Assembly (NCBI GenBank): GCA_038046605.1
Contig: JBBSVW010000068.1
Coordinates: forward strand, 1 to 25,224
Source: Candidatus Micrarchaeota archaeon
GTDB taxonomy: Archaea; Micrarchaeota; Micrarchaeia; Norongarragalinales; SBBD01
Direction: 5' to 3'
DNA length: 25,224 bases
In this document: positions 2,784-21,121 of the stretch, piece after piece
How the letters are laid out: each line of letters begins with the position of its first letter
How positions within the stretch are numbered: the stretch's first letter is position 1
Program-made: the position numbers and the translations under genes
Notes under the pieces: generated by a model
Seen by the model: the letters and a program-made list of their open reading frames with translations, nothing else
The model's database searches: none
What the model was told of the DNA's origin: nothing

Positions 2784-5645
2784 GTGCGGCATTCGAAAAA
2801 ATTTTTTTCTCTATTTATACCCTTAACGGTATTTTTACTGTTTTCCTCTACCGGCAGCTACCTGCAGACTGAAGAAACCCTTTCCGCGCAGCTAAAGGCT
2901 TCAGCCGTCCTATCCCCCATCGCTGCTGATGAAGGAGAGTTTTTACAAGTCACAATTACCTGCGATTATATTCCACCTCAGCCCTCAAAACCGATTTGCC
3001 TATGGGCGGATTCTTTGCCCCCCGGCGCCGCATTTCCGACGGTGAGCGGAACGGGTTCTGTCAGTTCAGACTTTTCGTGGATGCCAAATTATTGCCAAGC
3101 GGGAGCTTATCACGTCGAGTTCCTGTGCGGAGAGAGCTGCGGCGCAACCCTCACAACGCTTCTTGTTGACTTCGAGATAAATAATATCAACCGTTTGCCC
3201 TCGTTAGTTGTCGCACCCTCGGGACCCCTTTCCGTGCAGGCGGGTACGTCGGTGCATATGGATTTAACTGCTACCGATCCCGACACATCCCTATGCTCCG
3301 ACCCTTTCAACAAGGACAATTTAACTTTAAGGGGAATTGACCTTCCAAATGGGAGTTTAATCATCAACTATGGCAATGAAACCGGCGAGTTCAGTTGGGC
3401 CACAACGCCATTCGACTTGGGCGTGCACTTTCCGACGCTGATTGTTGACGATGGGAAAAACGGCAGCGATAATCAGACAGTTGAGATAAACGTCATGAGA
3501 CCCAATCCCGTGCTTCTCGTGCATGGCATCTACGATAGTGATGCTATGTGGGAAGCGATCAAAACCGATCTGGAGGCGAAAGGCTTCCAAGTCTTCCTTG
3601 TCGGGAACGTTACGGGAAAGGCCGGGCTTGAACCGAACAATGGGGACATACGAGAATTGAGCGTACAACTGCAAGAAGCGATAAGCGAGGTGAAGCGGAG
3701 GACCGGAGCGGACAAGGTCGACGTAATTGCGCACAGCATGGGCGGCCTCGTCACCTCCTGGTACATCAAGAGCGGCAATTTTGCGAATGACATCGGAACC
3801 TTCGTGACCCTTTCCACTCCCTTCTATGGAACGCCCATTTCAAAATATCTTCCAGCGCCTCTCCTCGGGGCGATAAGTGGAACGGATCCCGCGGACACCG
3901 CGAGGCACCAAATGAACGAAATCGGTTTTTCCGAATTCCTTCGCGAACTTGATCCCGATAGCCTTTCCGAGGTTTTTAACCAGAAAGGAGTTACGCATAT
4001 CGCCGTAATCGGAACGGACAACGAATTCTTGAAAGGGGCGGGGGTATTTTTAGCTGGCGGCTTCATCGATGACATCGGAAAAATCATATCTCTTCAGGAA
4101 CCCTGGGCGACTTCCGACAGCGACAGTGTCGTCCCCACAAATTCCCAGTCCGTGCCGGGTTCATTGTGTTTCAAAGTGCATGCCACCCACAGCAAGCGCT
4201 TCGGCAATCCGATTGCCGAGCATCCGGATATCATTTCATCAAACCTATCGCTCCTTTTAACTCAAGGCACATCCAACCTGGAAATATGCCAAGACTTCGA
4301 GCCGAGGAGGCCGCCAGGCGCCATCAGAATGGTGGTTCAGGCACCGTTTATTGCAGGCCAGATATTGGTCGGAGAAACCCTTAATGGGGGTTATAAGGTC
4401 GGAAGATTTATTTTTACGAGGCCGGGATGGTTTTGGCGTACAATCACCTCCCACAGCGGCAGCACCCTCAGCACCCGGCTCATTGCTCCTTCCGGCGCCA
4501 TTTTCAATTCAACCACCAACCAAACCAACCCGAACGTGACCTACGTTAAAGGGCCTAATTTTGAGGTTTTTGGAATCAAGGGGGCAGAACTTGGGCAATG
4601 GCAGGCCAACATCACCGCTATTGACGTCCCGCCGCAGGGAGAGAATTTCACTTTCATTCCCTTTATCCTGACCGACGTAAACCTCTCCATCCTGAACAAT
4701 AGGACCGAATTCTTCCTCGGCGATACGGTCCTGCGGGTTGTGGAAATTTCCAATGGAAGCGGAAGCTTCCCCGGAGCCAACGTCACGGAAGAAATCCGGT
4801 TATCGACCGGGGGCACTGAAGCCTTTTCCCTTTACGACGATGGTCTCCACGATGATTTCGGTCCAACCGACGGGATTTACGGAGGCTATTTCAGGAACGT
4901 CTCAAGCGAGGGAAACTATGCCGAAACAATAACTGCGAGCATCGGCACCGAAGCCGGGCCCCTCAATTTCACCGCTGGGGGCAGTGGCTTTTTCGCGAAG
5001 GGGCTCTGCGGCGACTTGAACAAGGATGGCGTGCGCAATGTATTGGATGTTGTAGGCGTGGTCAACATAGCCTTCAGGGGAGGTTCGCTTCCTGATCCTA
5101 CTTGGATCGCGGACATCAATGGCGACGGGATAAAAAGCGATGTGCTGGATGTTGTGGGGTTGATTAATCACGCCTTCAGGGGCGGGCCAGTGCCTACATG
5201 CACAGGCGGCACCGTTGCGACTTCCTCGAATACGGCGACGGTGAGTTTGGGAACGGCCACGAAGAATTCGGATGGGACTTTTACGATTCCGGTCAATTTA
5301 AATAATCCAGTGAATGCGCAAGCGGCGGGGGTGGAAATTTACTACGATGCCGCTAAATTGCAAATGCTATCGCCCGCCTTAACATCAAGAACTTTAAATT
5401 TGGATAAATATTACTCAACTAAAAATAATGCGTTAAAGGTAGGGATTTTGAAAAGCGATGGAAGCGCATACATCAACGCAGGGAATGGCCCGGTAATTAA
5501 TGTCCTTGTGAAGCCACTTACTGCTGCAATTGATTTCAGCAGTTTGAAAGTGCAGAACGCCAAATTTGTCGAGGCGAATGGTGCGCAGATGGTTGCAAAA
5601 ATCACCGCTTCAACCCCAAAAACGGCTGGAACGACTCTAAACTGA
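2784..5645 (+). CDS. Secreted multidomain alpha/beta-hydrolase (lipase/esterase) with Ig-like repeats, choice-of-anchor-X-like segment, dockerin and cohesin-like domain
   Basis: Signal-peptide-like N-terminus; two Ig/cadherin-like units; oxyanion motif PVLLVHGI; nucleophile AHSMGG; candidate Asp (SDSVVP) and His (ATHS); 'LYDDGLHDD...DGIYGG'; duplicated Ca-loop 'GDLNKDGVRNVLDVV' / 'ADINGDGIKSDVLDVV'; C-terminal beta-rich 'FTIPVNLNN...VEIYYDAAKL'. Confidence 0.75.
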   Translation: MRHSKKFFSLFIPLTVFLLFSSTGSYLQTEETLSAQLKASAVLSPIAADEGEFLQVTITCDYIPPQPSKPICLWADSLPPGAAFPTVSGTGSVSSDFSWMPNYCQAGAYHVEFLCGESCGATLTTLLVDFEINNINRLPSLVVAPSGPLSVQAGTSVHMDLTATDPDTSLCSDPFNKDNLTLRGIDLPNGSLIINYGNETGEFSWATTPFDLGVHFPTLIVDDGKNGSDNQTVEINVMRPNPVLLVHGIYDSDAMWEAIKTDLEAKGFQVFLVGNVTGKAGLEPNNGDIRELSVQLQEAISEVKRRTGADKVDVIAHSMGGLVTSWYIKSGNFANDIGTFVTLSTPFYGTPISKYLPAPLLGAISGTDPADTARHQMNEIGFSEFLRELDPDSLSEVFNQKGVTHIAVIGTDNEFLKGAGVFLAGGFIDDIGKIISLQEPWATSDSDSVVPTNSQSVPGSLCFKVHATHSKRFGNPIAEHPDIISSNLSLLLTQGTSNLEICQDFEPRRPPGAIRMVVQAPFIAGQILVGETLNGGYKVGRFIFTRPGWFWRTITSHSGSTLSTRLIAPSGAIFNSTTNQTNPNVTYVKGPNFEVFGIKGAELGQWQANITAIDVPPQGENFTFIPFILTDVNLSILNNRTEFFLGDTVLRVVEISNGSGSFPGANVTEEIRLSTGGTEAFSLYDDGLHDDFGPTDGIYGGYFRNVSSEGNYAETITASIGTEAGPLNFTAGGSGFFAKGLCGDLNKDGVRNVLDVVGVVNIAFRGGSLPDPTWIADINGDGIKSDVLDVVGLINHAFRGGPVPTCTGGTVATSSNTATVSLGTATKNSDGTFTIPVNLNNPVNAQAAGVEIYYDAAKLQMLSPALTSRTLNLDKYYSTKNNALKVGILKSDGSAYINAGNGPVINVLVKPLTAAIDFSSLKVQNAKFVEANGAQMVAKITASTPKTAGTTLN

Positions 5646-13795: not shown

Positions 13796-14101
13796 ATGTC
13801 TGAGATTTGTCCAAAGTGCGGCCTTCCTATTGATATCCATGCCTGCGATGAGCTGGCAAAGGCATCCGTTGCACAAATCCGCGTCTATACGACCAAATCA
13901 AGATACCAGAAGCTAGTTACTATTGTGGAAGGGCTAAAAGGCGAGGAATTGGAGAGCACTACAAAAGAACTCAAGCATAAGCTTGCCTGCGGCGGCACCC
14001 ATAAGGATGGGATGATCGTGCTCCAGGGCGACCATAAGATGAGGACTGCTGAACATTTGGTTAAGCTTGGGTATTCGAAGGATGTGATTAAGCTGAATTA
14101 G
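13796..14101 (+). CDS. Translation initiation factor SUI1/aIF1
   Basis: ICPKCGLP...C zinc knuckle, KLVTIVEG, LKHKLACGGT, IVLQGDH; canonical position after rpl29. Confidence 0.95.
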   Translation: MSEICPKCGLPIDIHACDELAKASVAQIRVYTTKSRYQKLVTIVEGLKGEELESTTKELKHKLACGGTHKDGMIVLQGDHKMRTAEHLVKLGYSKDVIKLN

Positions 14102-14739
14102 GCTATACCTGGCTTTTCTATTTTATAATGGTCTTCGCCCCAGAATACTTCCTTCTTTTTCTCAAATTTCCAGCCGTTTTTTACGCAAATCCTAACCAAT
14201 TCCCTGGCTAATCTTTTTTCTTTAATAGGGTCAGGCTCTAATGGCACATATCTATTTTGCCTCCTAGAATCATAAAAGACTGGTTTTAACCAAACCGGAA
14301 GACTATGGAAAAAACCTAAATTAACGGCTGCAGTGATTGCCCTTGCTCTGGCGCCAGCATATTTTGTATGAAGTGCTCTTGGAAGTCGCTCGCCAGTAAA
14401 CTCTTTATCCATCGTAGTGATATAGTGGTGTTGAGGTGGTTCAACAATCAAATTTCCACGGGTTATCCTGTATGTTAAAGTCAACACTGCACCCCTGTTG
14501 TTAAAAGCAGGACCCCAAGATTGGACTCCGTAAGAAGCATTTACGAAGGAACCCATATGCTCAGTCCTTGGGAAAACAACGATTGAGCCGATAAAATTTG
14601 GATGTTGGGTATGTTGTGGCTTTTCGACAAGCGTTACCATTTTATTGTCCTTTAGGACGATCCATCCTCCAAAATCGGTCCCATCCTTCCAATTCTTCTG
14701 CCACGCCATTTTTGCTACTTCGATTGGCTGCAATATCAT
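14098..14739 (-). CDS. Hypothetical protein (start may be ATG 14709)
   Basis: 213-aa open frame filling the gap and overlapping the SUI1 stop by 4 nt; no recognised motif. Confidence 0.6.
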   Translation of the reverse strand: MILQPIEVAKMAWQKNWKDGTDFGGWIVLKDNKMVTLVEKPQHTQHPNFIGSIVVFPRTEHMGSFVNASYGVQSWGPAFNNRGAVLTLTYRITRGNLIVEPPQHHYITTMDKEFTGERLPRALHTKYAGARARAITAAVNLGFFHSLPVWLKPVFYDSRRQNRYVPLEPDPIKEKRLARELVRICVKNGWKFEKKKEVFWGEDHYKIEKPGIA

Positions 14740-14828: not shown

Positions 14829-14899
14829 TTTCCACCAAAAACCTTAAAAATAACCATTTTCATATAAATATGGTGGAATTATGTACGAAATGGTGGAAA
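14829..14899 (+). promoter_or_regulatory. Promoter and candidate autoregulatory operator of the TA operon
   Basis: BRE/TATA-like CAAAAACCTTAAAAA; TTCCACCA 14830-14837 inverted against ATGGTGGAA at 14870-14878 and 14890-14898. Confidence 0.55.
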
Positions 14900-15132
14900 A
14901 GGAAGTGGATAAGCAAAACCGCTTATTGCTGCCTAGGGAGTGGGTCCGCGAACTTTTCGGAAAAAGCAGGAAGGCATTTATCATCAAAACCAAGGACTCT
15001 GTGAAAATCATTCCAAGAAGCACACACAAGCTTTCGGATTTCTTTGATGAAGCTAAAGTAGACCATGAACTTGACCCGTTCAAGGATTATCATGGAGCAT
15101 TAGCAAAGGCGTCCCTTAGGGTGAAATGGTAG
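14881..15132 (+). CDS. AbrB/SpoVT/MazE-fold antitoxin (VapB-like)
   Basis: N-terminal 'KEVDKQNRLLLPREW' swapped-hairpin motif; directly upstream of a PIN toxin. Confidence 0.8.
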   Translation: MYEMVEKEVDKQNRLLLPREWVRELFGKSRKAFIIKTKDSVKIIPRSTHKLSDFFDEAKVDHELDPFKDYHGALAKASLRVKW

Positions 15133-15133
15133 G

Positions 15134-15550
15134 ATGAGATTTGTGGATGCGAACGTATTAATCTTAGCATATCATTTGAAGCCTCGATACACTTCTGACC
15201 AGGTTGAAATGAAGAAGCGGGCAAAGAACATCGCAATCAGGATAGACGAAGGAGAGGAAGTGGCGACTTCAGTAATTCAACTCTCCGAAGCTGCTAACGT
15301 GCTATCCCATGCATTTGAACCCCAAAAATTGAGCGTGCTATTAAAAGCGATGGCTACGAAGGAAAATCTCAAGATATTTGATTGCTCAAGGGAAGAGTAT
15401 TTGGCTGCAATTGAACAGTCGGAAGAAACGGGAGTTGGCGTAAACGACTGCCTGGCACACGTGCTGATGCTGGCAAATGGAATCACGGAAATATACTCGT
15501 TCGACAAGGATTTTGACAAGTTTTCGGATATTAAGAGGCTTGAGAAATAA
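15134..15550 (+). CDS. vapC: PIN-domain ribonuclease toxin
   Basis: FVDANV, SE, ND(CL) and IYSFDKDFD acidic PIN residues; 138 aa. Confidence 0.9.
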   Translation: MRFVDANVLILAYHLKPRYTSDQVEMKKRAKNIAIRIDEGEEVATSVIQLSEAANVLSHAFEPQKLSVLLKAMATKENLKIFDCSREEYLAAIEQSEETGVGVNDCLAHVLMLANGITEIYSFDKDFDKFSDIKRLEK

Positions 15551-15671: not shown

Positions 15672-17213
15672 TTACAATTTGCGAACTATTCCTTTGGTGG
15701 CATCCACTTCCACCTTATCGCCGTCCTTTAGCCATTTGGTTGCAACTTTTGTCCCAATGACACAGGGGATTTTGAGCTCACGGGAAACAATTGCGGCGTG
15801 GCAGGTGACGCCGCCCTCATCCGTTACTATTGCAGCTGCCTTTTTCATCGCCGGCACCACATTTGGGTTTGTGGCAGGCGAAACCAGGATATCGCCCTTG
15901 TTCATCTTTGCCATATCCTCCGCCTTTCGGATGATCCTGACAATCCCCCTTGCATAGCCGGGGTAGGCAGGGGTTCCTGTAAGCCGCCTGATTTTCTTGT
16001 CCACTTTTTCCTCAACAATGAGTTTTGACCATTTTTCAGCCTCTTTTCCTGCCAGAATGCGGGGACCTTTTTCGTCGGCTACCATCACATAAAGTGAAAT
16101 CCGCGAATTTAACAGATCGGCATCTACTTTGCCGGTTTTGAGTGATTCCCTAATTTCCTTAGGCATCATGTGCCTAACCTGCTTTGGAGAAAGGTTTAGC
16201 CTCCTTGCAATCTCTCGGATCAGTGGATCCGAATTCCTGCTGGCAATAAAGACGGAATCCTTGCGAAGGCCTTTCAGATACGAAAAGGTCCGGGCAACCT
16301 TGCACCAGTAAATTTCATCCTTGGTTAAACGAAGTGATTTAGCCATCAATTGCTGCCCTTCGAGCACCTCCTTTTCGTGCCTAACGAGGGCATTCATTTT
16401 GGATTTCCCATCAATTCCCTGTTTCAATTCACTCCTCAAAAGGTCGGCAAAATAATCAACCTGCAAAATTGTGGGCCCATCATAGTGGAATTGGAGCCAG
16501 TCGTATTTTTCAGCGTGGGCAATGAGCGGTAGGGATATCTTAGGGATATGCACAAGCGAAGGGATGATGCTTCCAATTTCCATCGAAAATATTCCCTTTG
16601 CACGCCTGTCAGATTGGATTTTTGCCAAAATGCCATACAGCTCAAATTCCTCCTGCTGCATGAATGAGCGCTCGGTTGGGGTCCCCAGGATTCCAAATGC
16701 CTCACCTGCGGAAATATCGGAGTTTGAGCGATCCACTGCTTCTTCCAGAAAGGCCAAAATCTTGTTTGTAAGCATAAAATGGCCAAAATCCGAAAGGTTG
16801 ACAATATCGCCCCAAACATTCATTGCCCTCCAATATGAAAGCAGCTCATCGTAACGGTCGGAAAGCGCCACATTTGGCTTATTTGCCAAAGATGCATATT
16901 TTAGTTTAATGGAATTGGTGACCAAATTCAAGCAGGCCTTTTTCTCCTCTGAATATACCTTTACCAAAAACCCCTGCTCCCCAAGGCGCTCAAGCACAAG
17001 TTTGCCCAGTTCATCCCATTCGGATATTTCGCCACGTTGCCTGCAGCAATACCTCCACTGCGCATTCCTTGAATCCATGCAGATCGTATAATTATTCCTG
17101 CCAAGTATCGGCTTAAGTAGGGTACTGCAAGCCGTCATATAGCTTGCCGCATGCGGATAGGGCGATGCGTGATCCTCTGCAAATGCCTTGTAGTGGATTT
17201 TCATACCATTCAC
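15672..17213 (-). CDS. PEP-utilising-enzyme mobile (phospho-His swivel) domain fused to a large N-terminal helical domain
   Basis: C-terminal 'LTGTPAYPGYARG...GDILV...T...AAAIVTDEGGVTCHAAIVSRELKIPCVIG...GDKVEVDATKG'. No ATP-grasp and no PEP-binding TIM barrel. Start GTG 17213 or ATG 17204. Confidence 0.88.
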   Translation of the reverse strand: MNGMKIHYKAFAEDHASPYPHAASYMTACSTLLKPILGRNNYTICMDSRNAQWRYCCRQRGEISEWDELGKLVLERLGEQGFLVKVYSEEKKACLNLVTNSIKLKYASLANKPNVALSDRYDELLSYWRAMNVWGDIVNLSDFGHFMLTNKILAFLEEAVDRSNSDISAGEAFGILGTPTERSFMQQEEFELYGILAKIQSDRRAKGIFSMEIGSIIPSLVHIPKISLPLIAHAEKYDWLQFHYDGPTILQVDYFADLLRSELKQGIDGKSKMNALVRHEKEVLEGQQLMAKSLRLTKDEIYWCKVARTFSYLKGLRKDSVFIASRNSDPLIREIARRLNLSPKQVRHMMPKEIRESLKTGKVDADLLNSRISLYVMVADEKGPRILAGKEAEKWSKLIVEEKVDKKIRRLTGTPAYPGYARGIVRIIRKAEDMAKMNKGDILVSPATNPNVVPAMKKAAAIVTDEGGVTCHAAIVSRELKIPCVIGTKVATKWLKDGDKVEVDATKGIVRKL

Positions 17214-17230
17214 ATAGCAGTGATATTGTA

Positions 17231-17324
17231 ATGTTCAGTGATAATCTGGAATATATAGCCAGATATGAACATCCAGATGAAGATTCCAATTATATCCATG
17301 CAACATATCTGAAAACCTAGATAT
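17231..17324. promoter_or_regulatory. Candidate operator array around a TATA-like box
   Basis: Nested inverted repeats ATGTTCA 17231-17237 / TGAACAT 17266-17272 and ATCTGG 17244-17249 / CCAGAT 17259-17264 flank ATATATA; extra CCAGAT 17273-17278; ATATCT 17305-17310 / AGATAT 17319-17324. Confidence 0.55.
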
Positions 17325-17339
17325 TAACACCTTTAGCCG

Positions 17340-18005
17340 TCATATGCCGGAAAATATGGCAGTTTCAGACAAAAGGGAGGCCATTAGCTTTGATTCTGCC
17401 TTCTTCAAATGCTCCTGGAAGGTAGACCTTGGTACATGGAGCCTTTTGGAAATATCCTCAGCTGAGGATTTCCTCGGGTATTCATAATACCCGAATTTGG
17501 AAGCTGCTCTTATTGCCTCAAGCTGCTTTTTTGTCAGGGATGTGAAAACGGAAGGGAGCAATATGTTTATTGGCATTTGCCTAAGGCTTTGCAAATAAAT
17601 TTCTGTTTTAAGGCCAATGGACTTTACCTTCTTGAAAATCTCAAGAAGGTGCCTTTTCTGAAGGCTTCCAAGCGTCCAGTATTCCCAGCCGCCGTAGGCA
17701 AGTACCGGCCGGAGAAAAAATACCGTGCCCCCAAGGATAAGGTGATGGAACGCGGTATCGACCCGTATTCTGTAAAAAATCTGGTCATTTTCGATCTTTA
17801 TTATCTCCGCCCTCTTCTCCTCCGTAAGGCCTTTTATAAATTCTGCCTTGCGCTTGCCGGAAACAACGCATACCTTGTAGAGGTATTCCTTGCCCTTGTC
17901 CTCGTAGGCATTCAGGTATTGCGTGGTAATCGTGACTCCGGTCCTAAGGCCCACATCCAGCATCCCGGAGCCCTCGTGCCGAAGCTTGAATTTTGCGACC
18001 CACAT
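17340..18005 (-). CDS. Bacterio-opsin-activator-type (HTH_10) transcriptional regulator
   Basis: C-terminal LTKKQLEAIRAASKFGYYEYPRKSSAEDISKRLHVPRSTFQEHLKKAESKL is the HTH_10 signature; N-terminal putative sensor domain. Confidence 0.9.
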   Translation of the reverse strand: MWVAKFKLRHEGSGMLDVGLRTGVTITTQYLNAYEDKGKEYLYKVCVVSGKRKAEFIKGLTEEKRAEIIKIENDQIFYRIRVDTAFHHLILGGTVFFLRPVLAYGGWEYWTLGSLQKRHLLEIFKKVKSIGLKTEIYLQSLRQMPINILLPSVFTSLTKKQLEAIRAASKFGYYEYPRKSSAEDISKRLHVPRSTFQEHLKKAESKLMASLLSETAIFSGI

Positions 18006-18111
18006 AGGTTATCAATTTTTACTATTTTTATTTTCAAAGGGCATTTGGGGCGGCATTTTACCAAGCATTGCAAACAAGTAAGAACCTTCCCCGCCAATAT
18101 TGCTTTTCCCT

Positions 18112-19071
18112 TTACATAGTTGTTATCGGACGGCTCTGCACGATGTAGATTTTGCCCTTTTCGATGGCGAATTCCATGTCCTGGGGGAAATTGTAGTGCT
18201 TTTCAATTCCGATGCAGATTTTTGCCAGCTGGATGATAGTTTTGCCGTCCATTTTCTGCTTGGAGCGCAAATTCGGTGGAACGGGAACAGATACGGTTTG
18301 CACTTTGTTTCCGGTGATTTTCTTTGTTATCATTTTTTCCTGCTCATTAACCGCAACATCCACAAGGGAAAGGTCGCGCTTATCCACGACGTAATTATCC
18401 GGGGAAACAAGGCCGGCAACAACCGATTCGCCTAAGCCATATGCCGCCTCAATTACCATCTGATTTTTGTCCTTTGTTACCGGGTGGACAGTGAATACCA
18501 CGCCGGCAACCTCGGATTGGACCATCTTTTGGACTACGACGGCAACGGAAACATTTTGCAAGTGCATTTTTTTCTCGATGCGGTAAAAAATGGCGCGGGG
18601 GGTAAAGAGTGATGACCAGCACAGTTTGACCGTTCTCATCAAACCCTCCCTTTGTATGTTCATGTATGATTCGAGCTCGCCCGCCCAGCTCGCATTCGCG
18701 CCATCCTCGGCTGTTGCGGAGGAGCGGACTGCTACAAGGGATGCGCCAAGGGAATCGAATTGGGATAGCGCCTCATGATCCACTTCCTTTGGGATTTTTC
18801 CCTTGGAAATCAGAAGTCGGATATCCCTTGATGCCTTGTCAACAGTTGCGGTCTTTTTCACATCCACTTTTTTTAGGATGGAATCGATTTTGCCATTTAG
18901 TTTATTCGCTTTGAGGAATGCATCAAATGAGGGGGTTATGACAACAAACCCGGGAGGCACCGGAATTCCCGAATTGAACATCTCCCCAAGCTGCGCGCCC
19001 TTGCCGCCGGCAATTGAAACTGATTTCCTGCCTAGTTTTTTGAATGGAACCGCATAAATCCCCATTGGCAT
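18112..19071 (-). CDS. Stand-alone PEP/pyruvate-binding ATP-grasp domain (PPDK_N-like)
   Basis: GGKGAQLGEM, VPPGFVIT, VAVRSSATAED, VVVQKMV, GLGESVV, QDMEFAI; ends at IVQSRPITTM*, the usual end of this domain. Confidence 0.92.
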   Translation of the reverse strand: MPMGIYAVPFKKLGRKSVSIAGGKGAQLGEMFNSGIPVPPGFVVITPSFDAFLKANKLNGKIDSILKKVDVKKTATVDKASRDIRLLISKGKIPKEVDHEALSQFDSLGASLVAVRSSATAEDGANASWAGELESYMNIQREGLMRTVKLCWSSLFTPRAIFYRIEKKMHLQNVSVAVVVQKMVQSEVAGVVFTVHPVTKDKNQMVIEAAYGLGESVVAGLVSPDNYVVDKRDLSLVDVAVNEQEKMITKKITGNKVQTVSVPVPPNLRSKQKMDGKTIIQLAKICIGIEKHYNFPQDMEFAIEKGKIYIVQSRPITTM

Positions 19072-19113
19072 TCACCCACAGGATATGGTAAATGTGCGCC
19101 CATTTTTAAAGAG

Positions 19114-19884
19114 TTATTTTGTTAGGCGAAAAATGAAAAAAGCGGCAAATAGGGAAATCAAATATGCAAATAGTGTCCCTGCAACTAATCCAAAGGCCGG
19201 CACACCGTAATAGAATACGATCACGAATGGAATCACATTGAGGATGCCAAAGGTCATTGCCTTGCCGGTGGAGGCGGCAAATTCAATGCCATGCCTTTTG
19301 GTGAGGAAGTAAAAGGAGGTTGAAAATGCTGCGGGGAAGGATGCAAACATTCCGCCCCAAAGTGGCCCTAGGAATTTGGAGAGGATAACCGCAATGGAAA
19401 CTATAAGGCCGGAAAAAAGCCACCTTATCGCATACTCCCTTTTCCTAATTTTAATTTGGGGGATTTTTTTGCTTTCATATCCCCTCAAAATGAACATTGA
19501 AAAAGCGAAGATTGGCGCGGAAACCAGCAGCGAAAGTAAAAGATTGTCGATTTTGATTGCAATGAAAGGCAAAATCACAAGGGCCCAAATAATCAAGGAG
19601 AGGGGAATGGAATAATTGCCAAGCCGTTTGAAGAAATGCACATATGAAACTATGAAAACGGTGCTTGCGGATAGGACGATTGGCATGATTGCGCTTGCTT
19701 CAATTGCAGCGTGGTTGCTATTTGTCCAGGCGATGAATAGGAGGCTTACAAGGCTTGTTGAAGGAAGGCTAAGGAAGATCCCACCGGCCTTTGAACCGAG
19801 CTTTTCGGCAATCCGGATGCTTAGTGCAATTAAGCCCCCGCCGACAATAAAGGATAGGAGAAGTTTGACATAAAAAATATCCAT
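19114..19884 (-). CDS. DUF3147-like polytopic membrane protein with internal duplication
   Basis: About 8 TM segments; two homologous halves with 'AEKLGSKAGGIFLSLP' and 'SKFLGPLWGGMFASFP'. Confidence 0.7.
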   Translation of the reverse strand: MDIFYVKLLLSFIVGGGLIALSIRIAEKLGSKAGGIFLSLPSTSLVSLLFIAWTNSNHAAIEASAIMPIVLSASTVFIVSYVHFFKRLGNYSIPLSLIIWALVILPFIAIKIDNLLLSLLVSAPIFAFSMFILRGYESKKIPQIKIRKREYAIRWLFSGLIVSIAVILSKFLGPLWGGMFASFPAAFSTSFYFLTKRHGIEFAASTGKAMTFGILNVIPFVIVFYYGVPAFGLVAGTLFAYLISLFAAFFIFRLTK

Positions 19885-19962: not shown

Positions 19963-20988
19963 TTATTCGGAAGGGGTATTGATTTCCAAGGATTCATTTT
20001 CAGCATCATTTGTCGGCGTTGGGTCCGGTAATTCCAAAACAACATTTGCCCCCCCAACGGTGGCTTTTAGTCCCAGTTGACCCATTATTGCTTTTTCAAT
20101 ATCCTTATCCGCCGCCTTTTGGCGTTTTAGCTCCCTTGCGATTTTAAGCACTTTTTCAATGAGCTCGAAATTGCCATACACGAAATTGCCCGCATTCTGG
20201 TATTCCTCCAATTCCCCTTCAAACTTTTTAAGGGCGGATATTTGCTGCTTCAAGATGAATTCGATTTTTCTGGAGGGAGCATTTGTTTCATCCTTTAAGG
20301 CATCCTTTTGGGAATTGCCAATTGGATCATCTGCGGCATTGCCCACCCGCCCCAAAACCGCCGCGCCATAGTATTCATCGGCCATTTCGCATACGGAAAG
20401 GTACGCCTTTTTTTCCGAATTTGGGAACTTTTCCGTAGGGGTTGAGGAAAATCCCACGATTTTTCCCTCTATTAGATGGAGTGCGGGTTCCTTTTTTGGC
20501 AACTCCCCCAGCCGATTTTTATTTGGAAGTGGCACGTAAATTTCCGAATTTTTAATGGTGCGCGTCTTTGAAACCTCCGCCTTATAGGCGCCGATTATTT
20601 TGCCTTCGAGGTTGGTCAAAACAAGGTTGCCTTTTGCAAACATCTCAAAAATCAGGTGGAATTCCTCCTTCTTTTTCAATGTGATTGCAAATACCCTATC
20701 GTCATTTTCCTGTGATATTCCCACGATCTGCGCATTATCCAGGTATTTGCGAAGGAGCATGGCAAAATTGGAGGGGGATTGCGGGGATTCGACTATGAAT
20801 TTGGAAAGATGCGCCCTAAGGCCCAATTCGGCAATGAAGTTATATTCCTTATCCGCCCTCACCTTGAATCGGAACACGTTTTGGGAAAGCTCGTAGATCT
20901 TGCCCAGATGGCCCCCAACCATTGGCTGGAGCTCTGATACCAGGAAATGATAGTCAAGATTGGTCATCTTCTGCGGCTGGATTTGCAT
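19963..20988 (-). CDS. Rqc2/NEMF (NFACT family) homolog, shortened
   Basis: 'MTNLDY...ELQ', 'PSNFAMLLRKYL', 'QENDDRV', 'LIFEMFAKGNLVL', then a coiled coil (QQISALKKFE...AGNFVYGNF). Start ATG 20988 or 20967, about 341 aa. Confidence 0.85.
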   Translation of the reverse strand: MQIQPQKMTNLDYHFLVSELQPMVGGHLGKIYELSQNVFRFKVRADKEYNFIAELGLRAHLSKFIVESPQSPSNFAMLLRKYLDNAQIVGISQENDDRVFAITLKKKEEFHLIFEMFAKGNLVLTNLEGKIIGAYKAEVSKTRTIKNSEIYVPLPNKNRLGELPKKEPALHLIEGKIVGFSSTPTEKFPNSEKKAYLSVCEMADEYYGAAVLGRVGNAADDPIGNSQKDALKDETNAPSRKIEFILKQQISALKKFEGELEEYQNAGNFVYGNFELIEKVLKIARELKRQKAADKDIEKAIMGQLGLKATVGGANVVLELPDPTPTNDAENESLEINTPSE

Positions 20989-21121
20989 TGGAATCAACAA
21001 ATAAATAGGGATAAGGGATAATAAGATGGTTGGGATGGGTTGCGGAAACGAACGGCAAATAATTCGGGAAAACCGCAAATCTCCTAATTTTCAATTATTT
21101 CAAGGAAATGGCTATAGGCAA

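Follow-up and report, generated by a model that had tools for sequence, protein, structure and literature searches.

Which enzyme do two nearby genes encode if each resembles a part of phosphoenolpyruvate (PEP) synthase and neither comes with the PEP/pyruvate barrel of that enzyme? The genes lie in a DPANN genome fragment of the Micrarchaeota type (contig JBBSVW010000068.1; we refer to its whole length of 25,224 nucleotides as the window), which carries an archaeal ribosomal-protein cluster (uL3, uL4, uL23, uL2, uS19, uL22, uS3 and uL29) and then SUI1. An earlier, sequence-only reading had singled out a cassette of four co-oriented genes, encoding a DUF3147-like membrane protein, a stand-alone ATP-grasp protein, an HTH_10 regulator and a protein in which an unknown domain of about 400 residues precedes a phosphohistidine swivel domain, and had proposed that all four serve one dikinase-type system that modifies a small molecule. 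Both an open reading frame (ORF) check and Pfam agree with this gene set: the four genes are present on the minus strand with these domains, the matches to curated models being too strong for chance, and their nearest relatives are found in Micrarchaeota and Norongarragalinales metagenome-assembled genomes (MAGs). As for the class of mechanism, we conclude that the ATP-grasp protein and the substrate/His protein, here called HisProt, are very probably two subunits of a small-molecule dikinase of the superfamily that contains rifampicin phosphotransferase (RPH), PpsAB, CreHI and HpeHI. The assignment is carried by domain identities, fold, the histidine motif, fused forms of the two proteins and gene neighbourhoods. 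The features in question are as follows.

15672..17213, minus strand: substrate/His subunit HisProt, 513 aa, with a helical RPH-like N-domain (residues ~1-400) and a swivel domain (~402-513)
15798..15800, minus strand: codon of His472, the predicted phosphocarrier, in T464-x-x-G-G-x-x-x-H472 (from the translation and the motif T/SxxGGxxxH)
17244..17264, no strand: perfect inverted repeat ATCTGG-N9-CCAGAT, a candidate operator, 31-51 bp 5' of the HisProt start and spanning a TATA-like AT-rich box
17340..18005, minus strand: HTH_10 transcription regulator, 221 aa, with a BAT/HVO_2525_N-like N-terminal domain (Pfam HTH_10 at residues 157-209, E 7.5e-19)
18112..19071, minus strand: stand-alone ATP-grasp (PPDK_N) subunit, the predicted ATP-binding and His-charging half, 319 aa (Pfam PPDK_N, E 5.3e-97)
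19114..19884, minus strand: duplicated DUF3147 membrane protein, 256 aa (Pfam DUF3147, E 1.1e-11, two stretches)

The database versions of both enzymes start a few codons later (510 aa for HisProt, P0001; 317 aa for the ATP-grasp protein, P0168), and homologues of the two align from about residue 4-8.

HisProt has a swivel domain that Pfam recognizes (PEP-utilizers, residues 438-508, E 3.8e-26) and a stretch, residues 1 to ~400, in which it matches nothing. The swivel motif, TDEGGVTCHAAIVSREL, can be read directly at 15774-15824; it holds TDEGGVTCH, with His472 of 513, so that a C-terminal swivel domain carries the T/SxxGGxxxH motif (as defined in PMC12167813) within ~50 residues of the C-terminus, as in the rest of the superfamily. 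Among 58 full-length family members the motif is kept in 56, one of the exceptions being cut by a contig end and the other having an insertion. Position -2 from the catalytic His is Thr470, and Thr stands there in 52 of the 58 relatives. The closest PDB sequence match of the swivel domain is PEP synthase 8a8e (E 3.2e-29). Before the swivel domain, 85% or more of the 58 paralogs agree at six positions only (L176, R317, E334, R338, E353 and R371), a pattern that would fit a common phosphotransfer chemistry combined with divergent pockets.

The domain that Pfam leaves blank can be placed by its predicted structure. We modelled HisProt with AlphaFold2 on an alignment of homologues (predicted local distance difference test, pLDDT, 91.3; predicted template-modelling score, pTM, 0.90), and a Foldseek search of the PDB with this model returned Listeria RPH-Lm as all six best matches (E 3.2e-14 to 1.3e-12, query template-modelling score, TMq, 0.43-0.60, over ~575-590 columns). 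The matches that come after RPH-Lm cover the swivel domain only (TMq <=0.19), and RPH-Lm is the only solved structure that Foldseek matches to HisProt over its whole length. In the ESM Atlas, 25 of 30 feature neighbours of HisProt fall in a set carrying Pfam Rph_4th, which we take as a lead only, with Rph_4th found on 21% of members in the Atlas cluster shown. The modelled fold confirms that the N-domain is RPH-like, as the sequence-only reading had supposed: by structure only, a predicted helical homologue of the rifampicin (RIF)-binding domain takes the place of the PEP/pyruvate barrel. At the level of sequence we found no link of the N-domain to solved structures, phmmer matching PDB chains only from residue ~349 on. 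Its relatives are numerous: a HMMER search with residues 1-360 matched 636 representative clusters at E<=1e-3, 241 at E<=1e-10 and 35 at E<=1e-30, the majority being ~500-aa proteins of the same plan as HisProt. RPH binds phosphate through the block Arg666/Glu667/Lys670 (PMC4844700), which is not mappable onto HisProt because its N-domain has no sequence-level alignment to RPH; R317, E334 and R338 are conserved candidates for an equivalent block.

In the ATP-grasp subunit, PPDK_N spans residues 19-318 and Pfam finds no further domain, which is the ATP-grasp module expected for the superfamily. Its PDB matches are PEP synthase 8a8e (E 5.2e-62), the RPH ATP-grasp domain (5hv6, 2.7e-56; 5fbs, 1.9e-55) and a 387-aa stand-alone chain, 9goj (4.4e-43), which we presume to be the HpeI structure. 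Of 8000 scored candidates, 6609 are stand-alone homologues at E<=1e-30 (at least 6609, therefore, ranging from 175 to 559 aa); the 120 matches listed are 306-350 aa long with PPDK_N only, and those of them that carry a Patescibacteria name are 55-60% identical to the archaeal protein. As far as homology tells, stand-alone ATP-grasp proteins of this kind are highly conserved and abundant.

Several lines of evidence join the two proteins into one enzyme, as the sequence-only reading had held. Complex prediction of the ATP-grasp protein with HisProt, each with its alignment, gave an interface score (ipSAE) of 0.73 in three runs, while the best of 3 controls reached 0.00; this mark is reached by 116 of 157 solved complexes and by 2 of 215 mismatched pairs. 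Between runs, >=97% of contacts agree, with a partner pLDDT of >=83, and the predicted contacts are between HisProt 333-345 and 365-370 and ATP-grasp 233-241 and 270-280. Fused relatives exist in both orders: P0068 (829 aa) has ATP-grasp, N-domain and His domain, the order of RPH, and P0074 (860 aa) has the permuted order N-domain, His domain, ATP-grasp; P0153 and P0021 are likewise fused. P0068 matches the window N-domain (E 3.2e-23) and also aligns through residue 522 (7-522) with the RPH-like NCBIfam model PRK06241.1-3, thereby bridging RPH-like models and HisProt. Finally, we examined 24 loci that encode relatives, from a scan of one genome per species. By title, 17 of them are Micrarchaeota or Norongarragalinales, 2 are "archaeon", 4 are Patescibacteria (L005, L006, L008 and L022), 1 is a Pirellulales bin and 1 a Gammaproteobacteria bin; simple ORF calling with phmmer classification yielded 66 substrate/His ORFs. 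ATP-grasp orthologues adjoin substrate/His genes in four of the 24 (L002, L004, L010 and L022). As with the genes of known two-component dikinases, the two in the window are separate neighbours: from the stop of the ATP-grasp ORF to the HisProt start it is 899 bp, with one gene, HTH_10, in between. Using tblastn with the cassette proteins and all locus proteins, we found no second copy of either half in the window.

Several observations weigh against a two-subunit dikinase. Within the flanks covered, many of them short, 20 of the 24 related loci are without an ATP-grasp gene. The four genes of the cassette are spaced by 42, 106 and 126 bp, gaps at which a single operon is no more than a possibility; between the two enzyme genes lie the regulator gene and intervals of 106-126 bp, which makes their co-transcription likewise no more than possible. 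The TM of 0.60 to RPH-Lm is moderate, and a HMMER profile of 20 homologues reaches RPH only from position 341 on. The complex prediction, itself a product of modelling, may only reflect likeness to solved single-chain RPH. No gene in the neighbourhood names a substrate. Lastly, because the -2 residue of the swivel domain is Thr, as in PEP synthase, and not Met as in phenolic kinases and RPH, the pair appears from its motif not to be a close member of the characterized dikinase clades.

The two-gene split is not new: it is already known from bacteria, and here the sequence-only reading, while right about the split itself, had given too little weight to two-protein forms that are biochemically characterized. 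HpeHI, CreHI and PpsAB (AcvAB) are published two-component dikinases of phenolic small molecules (PMC12167813, JBC 2025). According to that report, HpeI is homologous to the RPH ATP-grasp domain and HpeH to its swivel and rifampin-binding domains, the H581Q substitution leaves no activity, HpeH by itself can pass phosphate from one substrate to another, and the HpeH-HpeI complex is transient, none stable being seen in the experiments it describes (PMC12167813). Like these systems, the window pair has a separate ~320-390-aa ATP-grasp protein and a second protein in which a C-terminal swivel domain with T/SxxGGxxxH comes after an RPH-like substrate domain; the complex of the two is predicted to be transient, and a PEP/pyruvate barrel is absent. 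Unlike them, it belongs to a DPANN archaeon with close relatives in the Candidate Phyla Radiation (CPR), has no catabolic partner genes nearby, has a regulator gene between its halves and has relatives in which one locus can hold an array of 2 to 6 diverged substrate/His genes. HisProt, at 513 aa, is shorter than HpeH (71 kDa), and unlike HpeH, CreH, PpsA and RPH, all with Met at -2, it resembles PEP synthase in having Thr-Cys ahead of the His. The archaeal/CPR clade, the PEP-synthase-like swivel domain and the array-forming modules are what is new here, and we found no description of the split form or of the arrays in DPANN or CPR in the open-access papers searched.

Could the pair be an orthologue of PpsAB, CreHI or HpeHI that activates phenolics for degradation? 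The two-component architecture and His motif are the same as in these enzymes (PMC12167813), and phenylphosphate synthase genes have been annotated in DPANN MAGs in which, in the account given there, the carboxylase went undetected (PMC8091004). However, the phenolic clade is defined by about 45% pairwise identity among substrate subunits and by Met at -2 (PMC12167813), a position at which HisProt has Thr. We set the window pair apart from this clade by motif, model scores and gene context, not by direct identity. The NCBIfam PRK08296 models, built for His proteins of ~600 aa, align only to HisProt ~384-512, that is, the last ~110-130 residues around the swivel domain, with 80-101 bits against cut-offs of 578-730. 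Nor is there an aromatic catabolic cluster: no carboxylase or other aromatic-catabolic family turned up in 164 neighbouring ORFs of the 24 loci (E<=1e-4) or in 29 window ORFs (1e-3 to 1e-2). A catabolic phenol-type kinase is therefore rather improbable in our judgement. We also consider it improbable that the pair is a split resistance enzyme inactivating rifamycin or another antibiotic by phosphotransfer, even if RPH-Lm (PDB 5FBS/5FBT/5FBU/5HV1; PMC4844700), with its substrate domain followed by a swivel domain, is both the best and the only full-length structural match, surveys of the CPR resistome have recorded rph-like genes (PMC8651080), and diverged substrate modules in arrays would be well matched to toxic small molecules of several kinds. 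RPH consists of a single chain of ~865 aa and the window enzyme of two chains, whose substrate domain HMMER cannot align with the RIF-binding domain. The RPH equivalog models (NF041857 and NF000283) score the ATP-grasp protein and HisProt far too low, at 247.6 and 78.5 bits (cut-off 999) and at 166.9 and 49.2 bits (cut-off 1700). The host, moreover, is an archaeon, and archaeal RNA polymerase is not known to be a rifamycin target. For distant clades the RPH structure paper itself concludes that there are other substrates, describing a family of small-molecule dikinases that is widespread, occurs in both bacteria and archaea and has diverged in its substrates (PMC4844700).

The strongest sequence matches point elsewhere, to a degenerate or split PEP synthase (pyruvate-water dikinase) of central carbon metabolism. 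NF005057, the PEP synthase model, is the best NCBIfam match of both halves; PEP synthase 8a8e leads their PDB matches; the ATP-grasp and swivel domains are closest to this enzyme (TIGR01418/NF005057; PDB 8a8e, 9dae, 2ols), with which HisProt has GGxT(S/C)HAAIVSRE, including the PEP-synthase-like GGVTCH, in common; and Thr at -2 is a regulatory site in PEP synthase. Database names of relatives are "pyruvate, water dikinase" or "PEP-utilizing enzyme". However, the NF005057 scores of 327.5 bits for the ATP-grasp protein and 135.5 bits for HisProt are well below the curated cut-off of 598, and the His domain, central in PEP synthase, is here C-terminal to an RPH-like helical domain that PEP synthase is without. 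The barrel, which the sequence-only reading had noted as absent, is indeed missing: Pfam finds no PEP-utilizers_C/TIM barrel among the 29 window ORFs scanned, and none of the 24 loci has PEP-utilizers_C. We regard a PEP synthase as scarcely credible. An ATP-dependent condensing enzyme of the PigC/RedH/HapC type, in which one substrate is activated by phosphorylation so that a C-C or C-N bond can form, or a phosphocarrier acting on a protein, is very improbable. PigC, itself counted in the RPH-type superfamily, and RedH have the domain plan of RPH, and their models match the ATP-grasp protein with 226-232 bits and HisProt with 62-63 bits, similar to RPH; set against this, the cut-offs are 1300-1350, no biosynthetic genes turned up in the window or the loci, and such an enzyme would be implausible in a reduced DPANN genome.

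For the two-subunit small-molecule dikinase, we infer a mechanism from characterized relatives, extending by analogy to its chemistry, the charging in trans, the substrate class and the regulation. The ATP-grasp subunit would bind ATP; the swivel domain of HisProt would dock on it, and His472 would attack the beta-phosphate, with the gamma-phosphate released as Pi and AMP leaving as well. The phospho-His domain would then swing back to its own helical N-domain, where the phosphate would pass to a hydroxyl, or a similar nucleophile, of a bound small molecule. Pyruvate is unlikely to be the substrate because there is no barrel, and rifamycin is unlikely given an archaeal host and a diverged pocket. 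By analogy, the most likely role in an organism that lives off hosts would be the trapping or neutralizing of a membrane-permeant small molecule from the host or the environment; the HpeHI authors have suggested that kinases of this sort keep diffusible compounds from leaving the cell (PMC12167813).

Related loci bear differently on the other two genes of the cassette. The order in L004, and partly in L002, is NFACT, ATP-grasp, (HAD), (HTH_10), HisProt, SUI1 and the ribosomal cluster. The full four-gene set proposed in the sequence-only reading never recurs; what does recur, in L004 and L010, is the enzyme pair with its regulator. HTH_10 orthologues adjoin HisProt genes in 7/24 loci (L004, L010, L012, L013, L018, L019 and L020), and a TrmB-type regulator lies near HisProt genes in three others (L014, L021 and L024). 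The HTH_10 protein (AlphaFold2 model, pLDDT 80) has as its Atlas structural neighbours, at TM 0.73-0.88, HTH_10 regulators, several of them with BAT/HVO_2525_N/HVO_A0563_N/DmsR_N domains; its N-domain resembles generic BAT/HVO_2525_N-type domains in the Atlas and gives no hint of an effector. Lying between the halves, the gene would probably act as a local regulator. The adjacency gives this role a moderate footing, and the claim that the regulator senses the small molecule is weakened by our having identified neither operator nor ligand. The inverted repeat, a candidate operator, does not stand out statistically, since matches at <=2 mismatches arose, once or more, in 66 of 100 shuffles, and neither the repeat nor any other upstream motif was visibly conserved across the 16 HisProt orthologue upstream regions inspected.

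The membrane protein fares worse. The DUF3147 protein, with about 8 hydrophobic segments by a crude count, has no homologue in any of the 24 loci (tblastn E<=1e-5; BLAST clustering), and in L002 and L004 NFACT abuts ATP-grasp with no DUF3147 gene between them. Since these syntenic relatives are without it, the window gene is a lineage-specific insertion between NFACT and ATP-grasp. The transport role once proposed for it is not supported, and we regard the protein as a probable bystander. Some arrays (L020, L005, L014/L021/L024) have small hydrophobic ORFs upstream, but these gave no DUF3147 match even at E<=1, and we have dropped DUF3147, or another membrane protein, as a partner. The NFACT-N gene itself (19963-21078, minus strand, 371 aa) encodes the N-terminal and middle domains only; in L002 and L004, too, it stands to the left of ATP-grasp, a conserved position that is probably synteny without functional meaning.

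Putative phosphatases of the haloacid dehalogenase (HAD) type lie by dikinase genes in seven of the 24 loci and form two BLAST families, one in L004, L008, L010, L011 and L022 and the other in L013 and L017. In L004 (4002-4598) and L010 (4483-5076) the HAD gene is located between ATP-grasp and HTH_10, and the window is without one. Judged by these gene positions, a kinase/phosphatase pairing is possible.

The sequence-only reading had pictured a shared ATP-grasp subunit with an exchangeable substrate/His subunit, and the related loci lend weight to this idea. Seventeen of the 24 carry 2 to 6 substrate/His ORFs in tandem, with few exceptions in the same orientation and in many cases with overlaps of a few bases: L007, L020 and L023 have 5 each and L022 has 6, counts that are lower bounds, several arrays running off the end of the sequence. 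We placed 58 full-length members in a quick IQ-TREE maximum-likelihood tree (SH-aLRT support, midpoint root), leaving out 8 of the 66 HisProt ORFs as fragments of <430 aa; the window protein is the 58th row. Array members fall in deep, well-supported clades, each mixing Micrarchaeota and Patescibacteria, for example L005_7622 with L013_5308 (support 100), L014_5404 with L022_1621 (96) and L022_6406 with L023_5959 (100). They are consequently, for the most part, old paralog subfamilies and not recent local duplicates, pairs in L006 and L020 being the exceptions. The window HisProt belongs to a 23-member clade with support 100, which was the target of the search. Among database proteins are single predicted polypeptides of 960-2309 aa with 2 to 4 complete substrate/His units (P0052, P0037, P0051 and others); P0052, with 2309 aa, has four PEP-utilizers domains and one PPDK_N. 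These chains are predicted proteins, and gene-calling artefacts are possible among them.

The arrays, the conserved ATP-grasp protein and the multi-His chains fit, without proof, one charger serving many substrate modules, and in these relatives one conserved ATP-grasp protein would appear to serve batteries of diverged substrate/His subunits. More speculatively, and as a possibility that we put forward tentatively, DPANN and CPR may have one conserved charger with a battery of up to at least 6 anciently diverged substrate/His subunits, in tandem arrays and in part fused into chains of 1000-2300 aa. These would make up a modular, combinatorial phosphorylation of many small molecules, exchanged between both symbiont radiations and trapping or disarming host metabolites, of which the window would hold a minimal version with one charger and one module under an HTH_10 regulator.

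Naming matters here. As the sequence-only reading had anticipated, the sources name both genes "PEP synthase", "pyruvate, water dikinase" or "PEP-utilizing enzyme", and names of this kind can wrongly credit DPANN and CPR genomes with gluconeogenesis, phenol degradation or rifamycin resistance; calling the pair a two-component small-molecule dikinase removes the mis-credit. That very small genomes keep a conserved ATP-grasp protein, and often several deeply diverged substrate modules, suggests that phosphorylating a set of small molecules is important for a symbiotic way of life. The system, small and soluble, is easily tested in vitro, including the notion of one charger for many modules.

Some further observations concern the arrays. 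A reading of the locus as a defence system was dropped after PADLOC matched neither the cassette proteins nor the unknown proteins embedded in arrays. In three Micrarchaeota loci (L007:5119-5928, L017:1314-1964 and L018:4333-5193), proteins of one family, 216-286 aa long, are encoded inside a HisProt array or at its border; the family has no Pfam or PADLOC match and may be a further component. L015 and L023, from bins labelled Gammaproteobacteria and Pirellulales, have typical arrays, and the array members group with sequences from DPANN and CPR, either through horizontal transfer or through mis-binning. In a Micrarchaeota MAG, a core-clade HisProt gene (L019:5992-7534) is split into overlapping ORFs of 348 aa and 182 aa by an apparent frameshift or sequencing error. 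P0145, one of the multi-unit chains, also has an intein-like segment, and the dCTP-deaminase-like gene at L021:1-1596 is broken up by an intein that carries an HTH domain and a LAGLIDADG endonuclease.

Other genes of the window lie outside the cassette. Between HisProt and SUI1 are a 213-aa ORF (14098-14739, minus strand) that matches no family and, at 14881-15550 on the plus strand, a PIN-domain gene (138 aa, E 7.5e-11) after an 83-aa ORF with a weak MraZ/AbrB-like match (E 0.08); the latter two look like a toxin-antitoxin pair. None of the three ORFs has a homologue in the HisProt-SUI1 interval of L001, L003, L004 or L007, and in L004 and L007 SUI1 comes directly after HisProt. Further away, at 2784-5645 on the plus strand, a 953-aa protein combines an alpha/beta-hydrolase region (lipase/esterase-like, DUF676, ~241-371) with a cohesin domain at its C-terminus; it is possibly a lipase displayed at the surface, and as such would be noteworthy in an archaeon that depends on a host.

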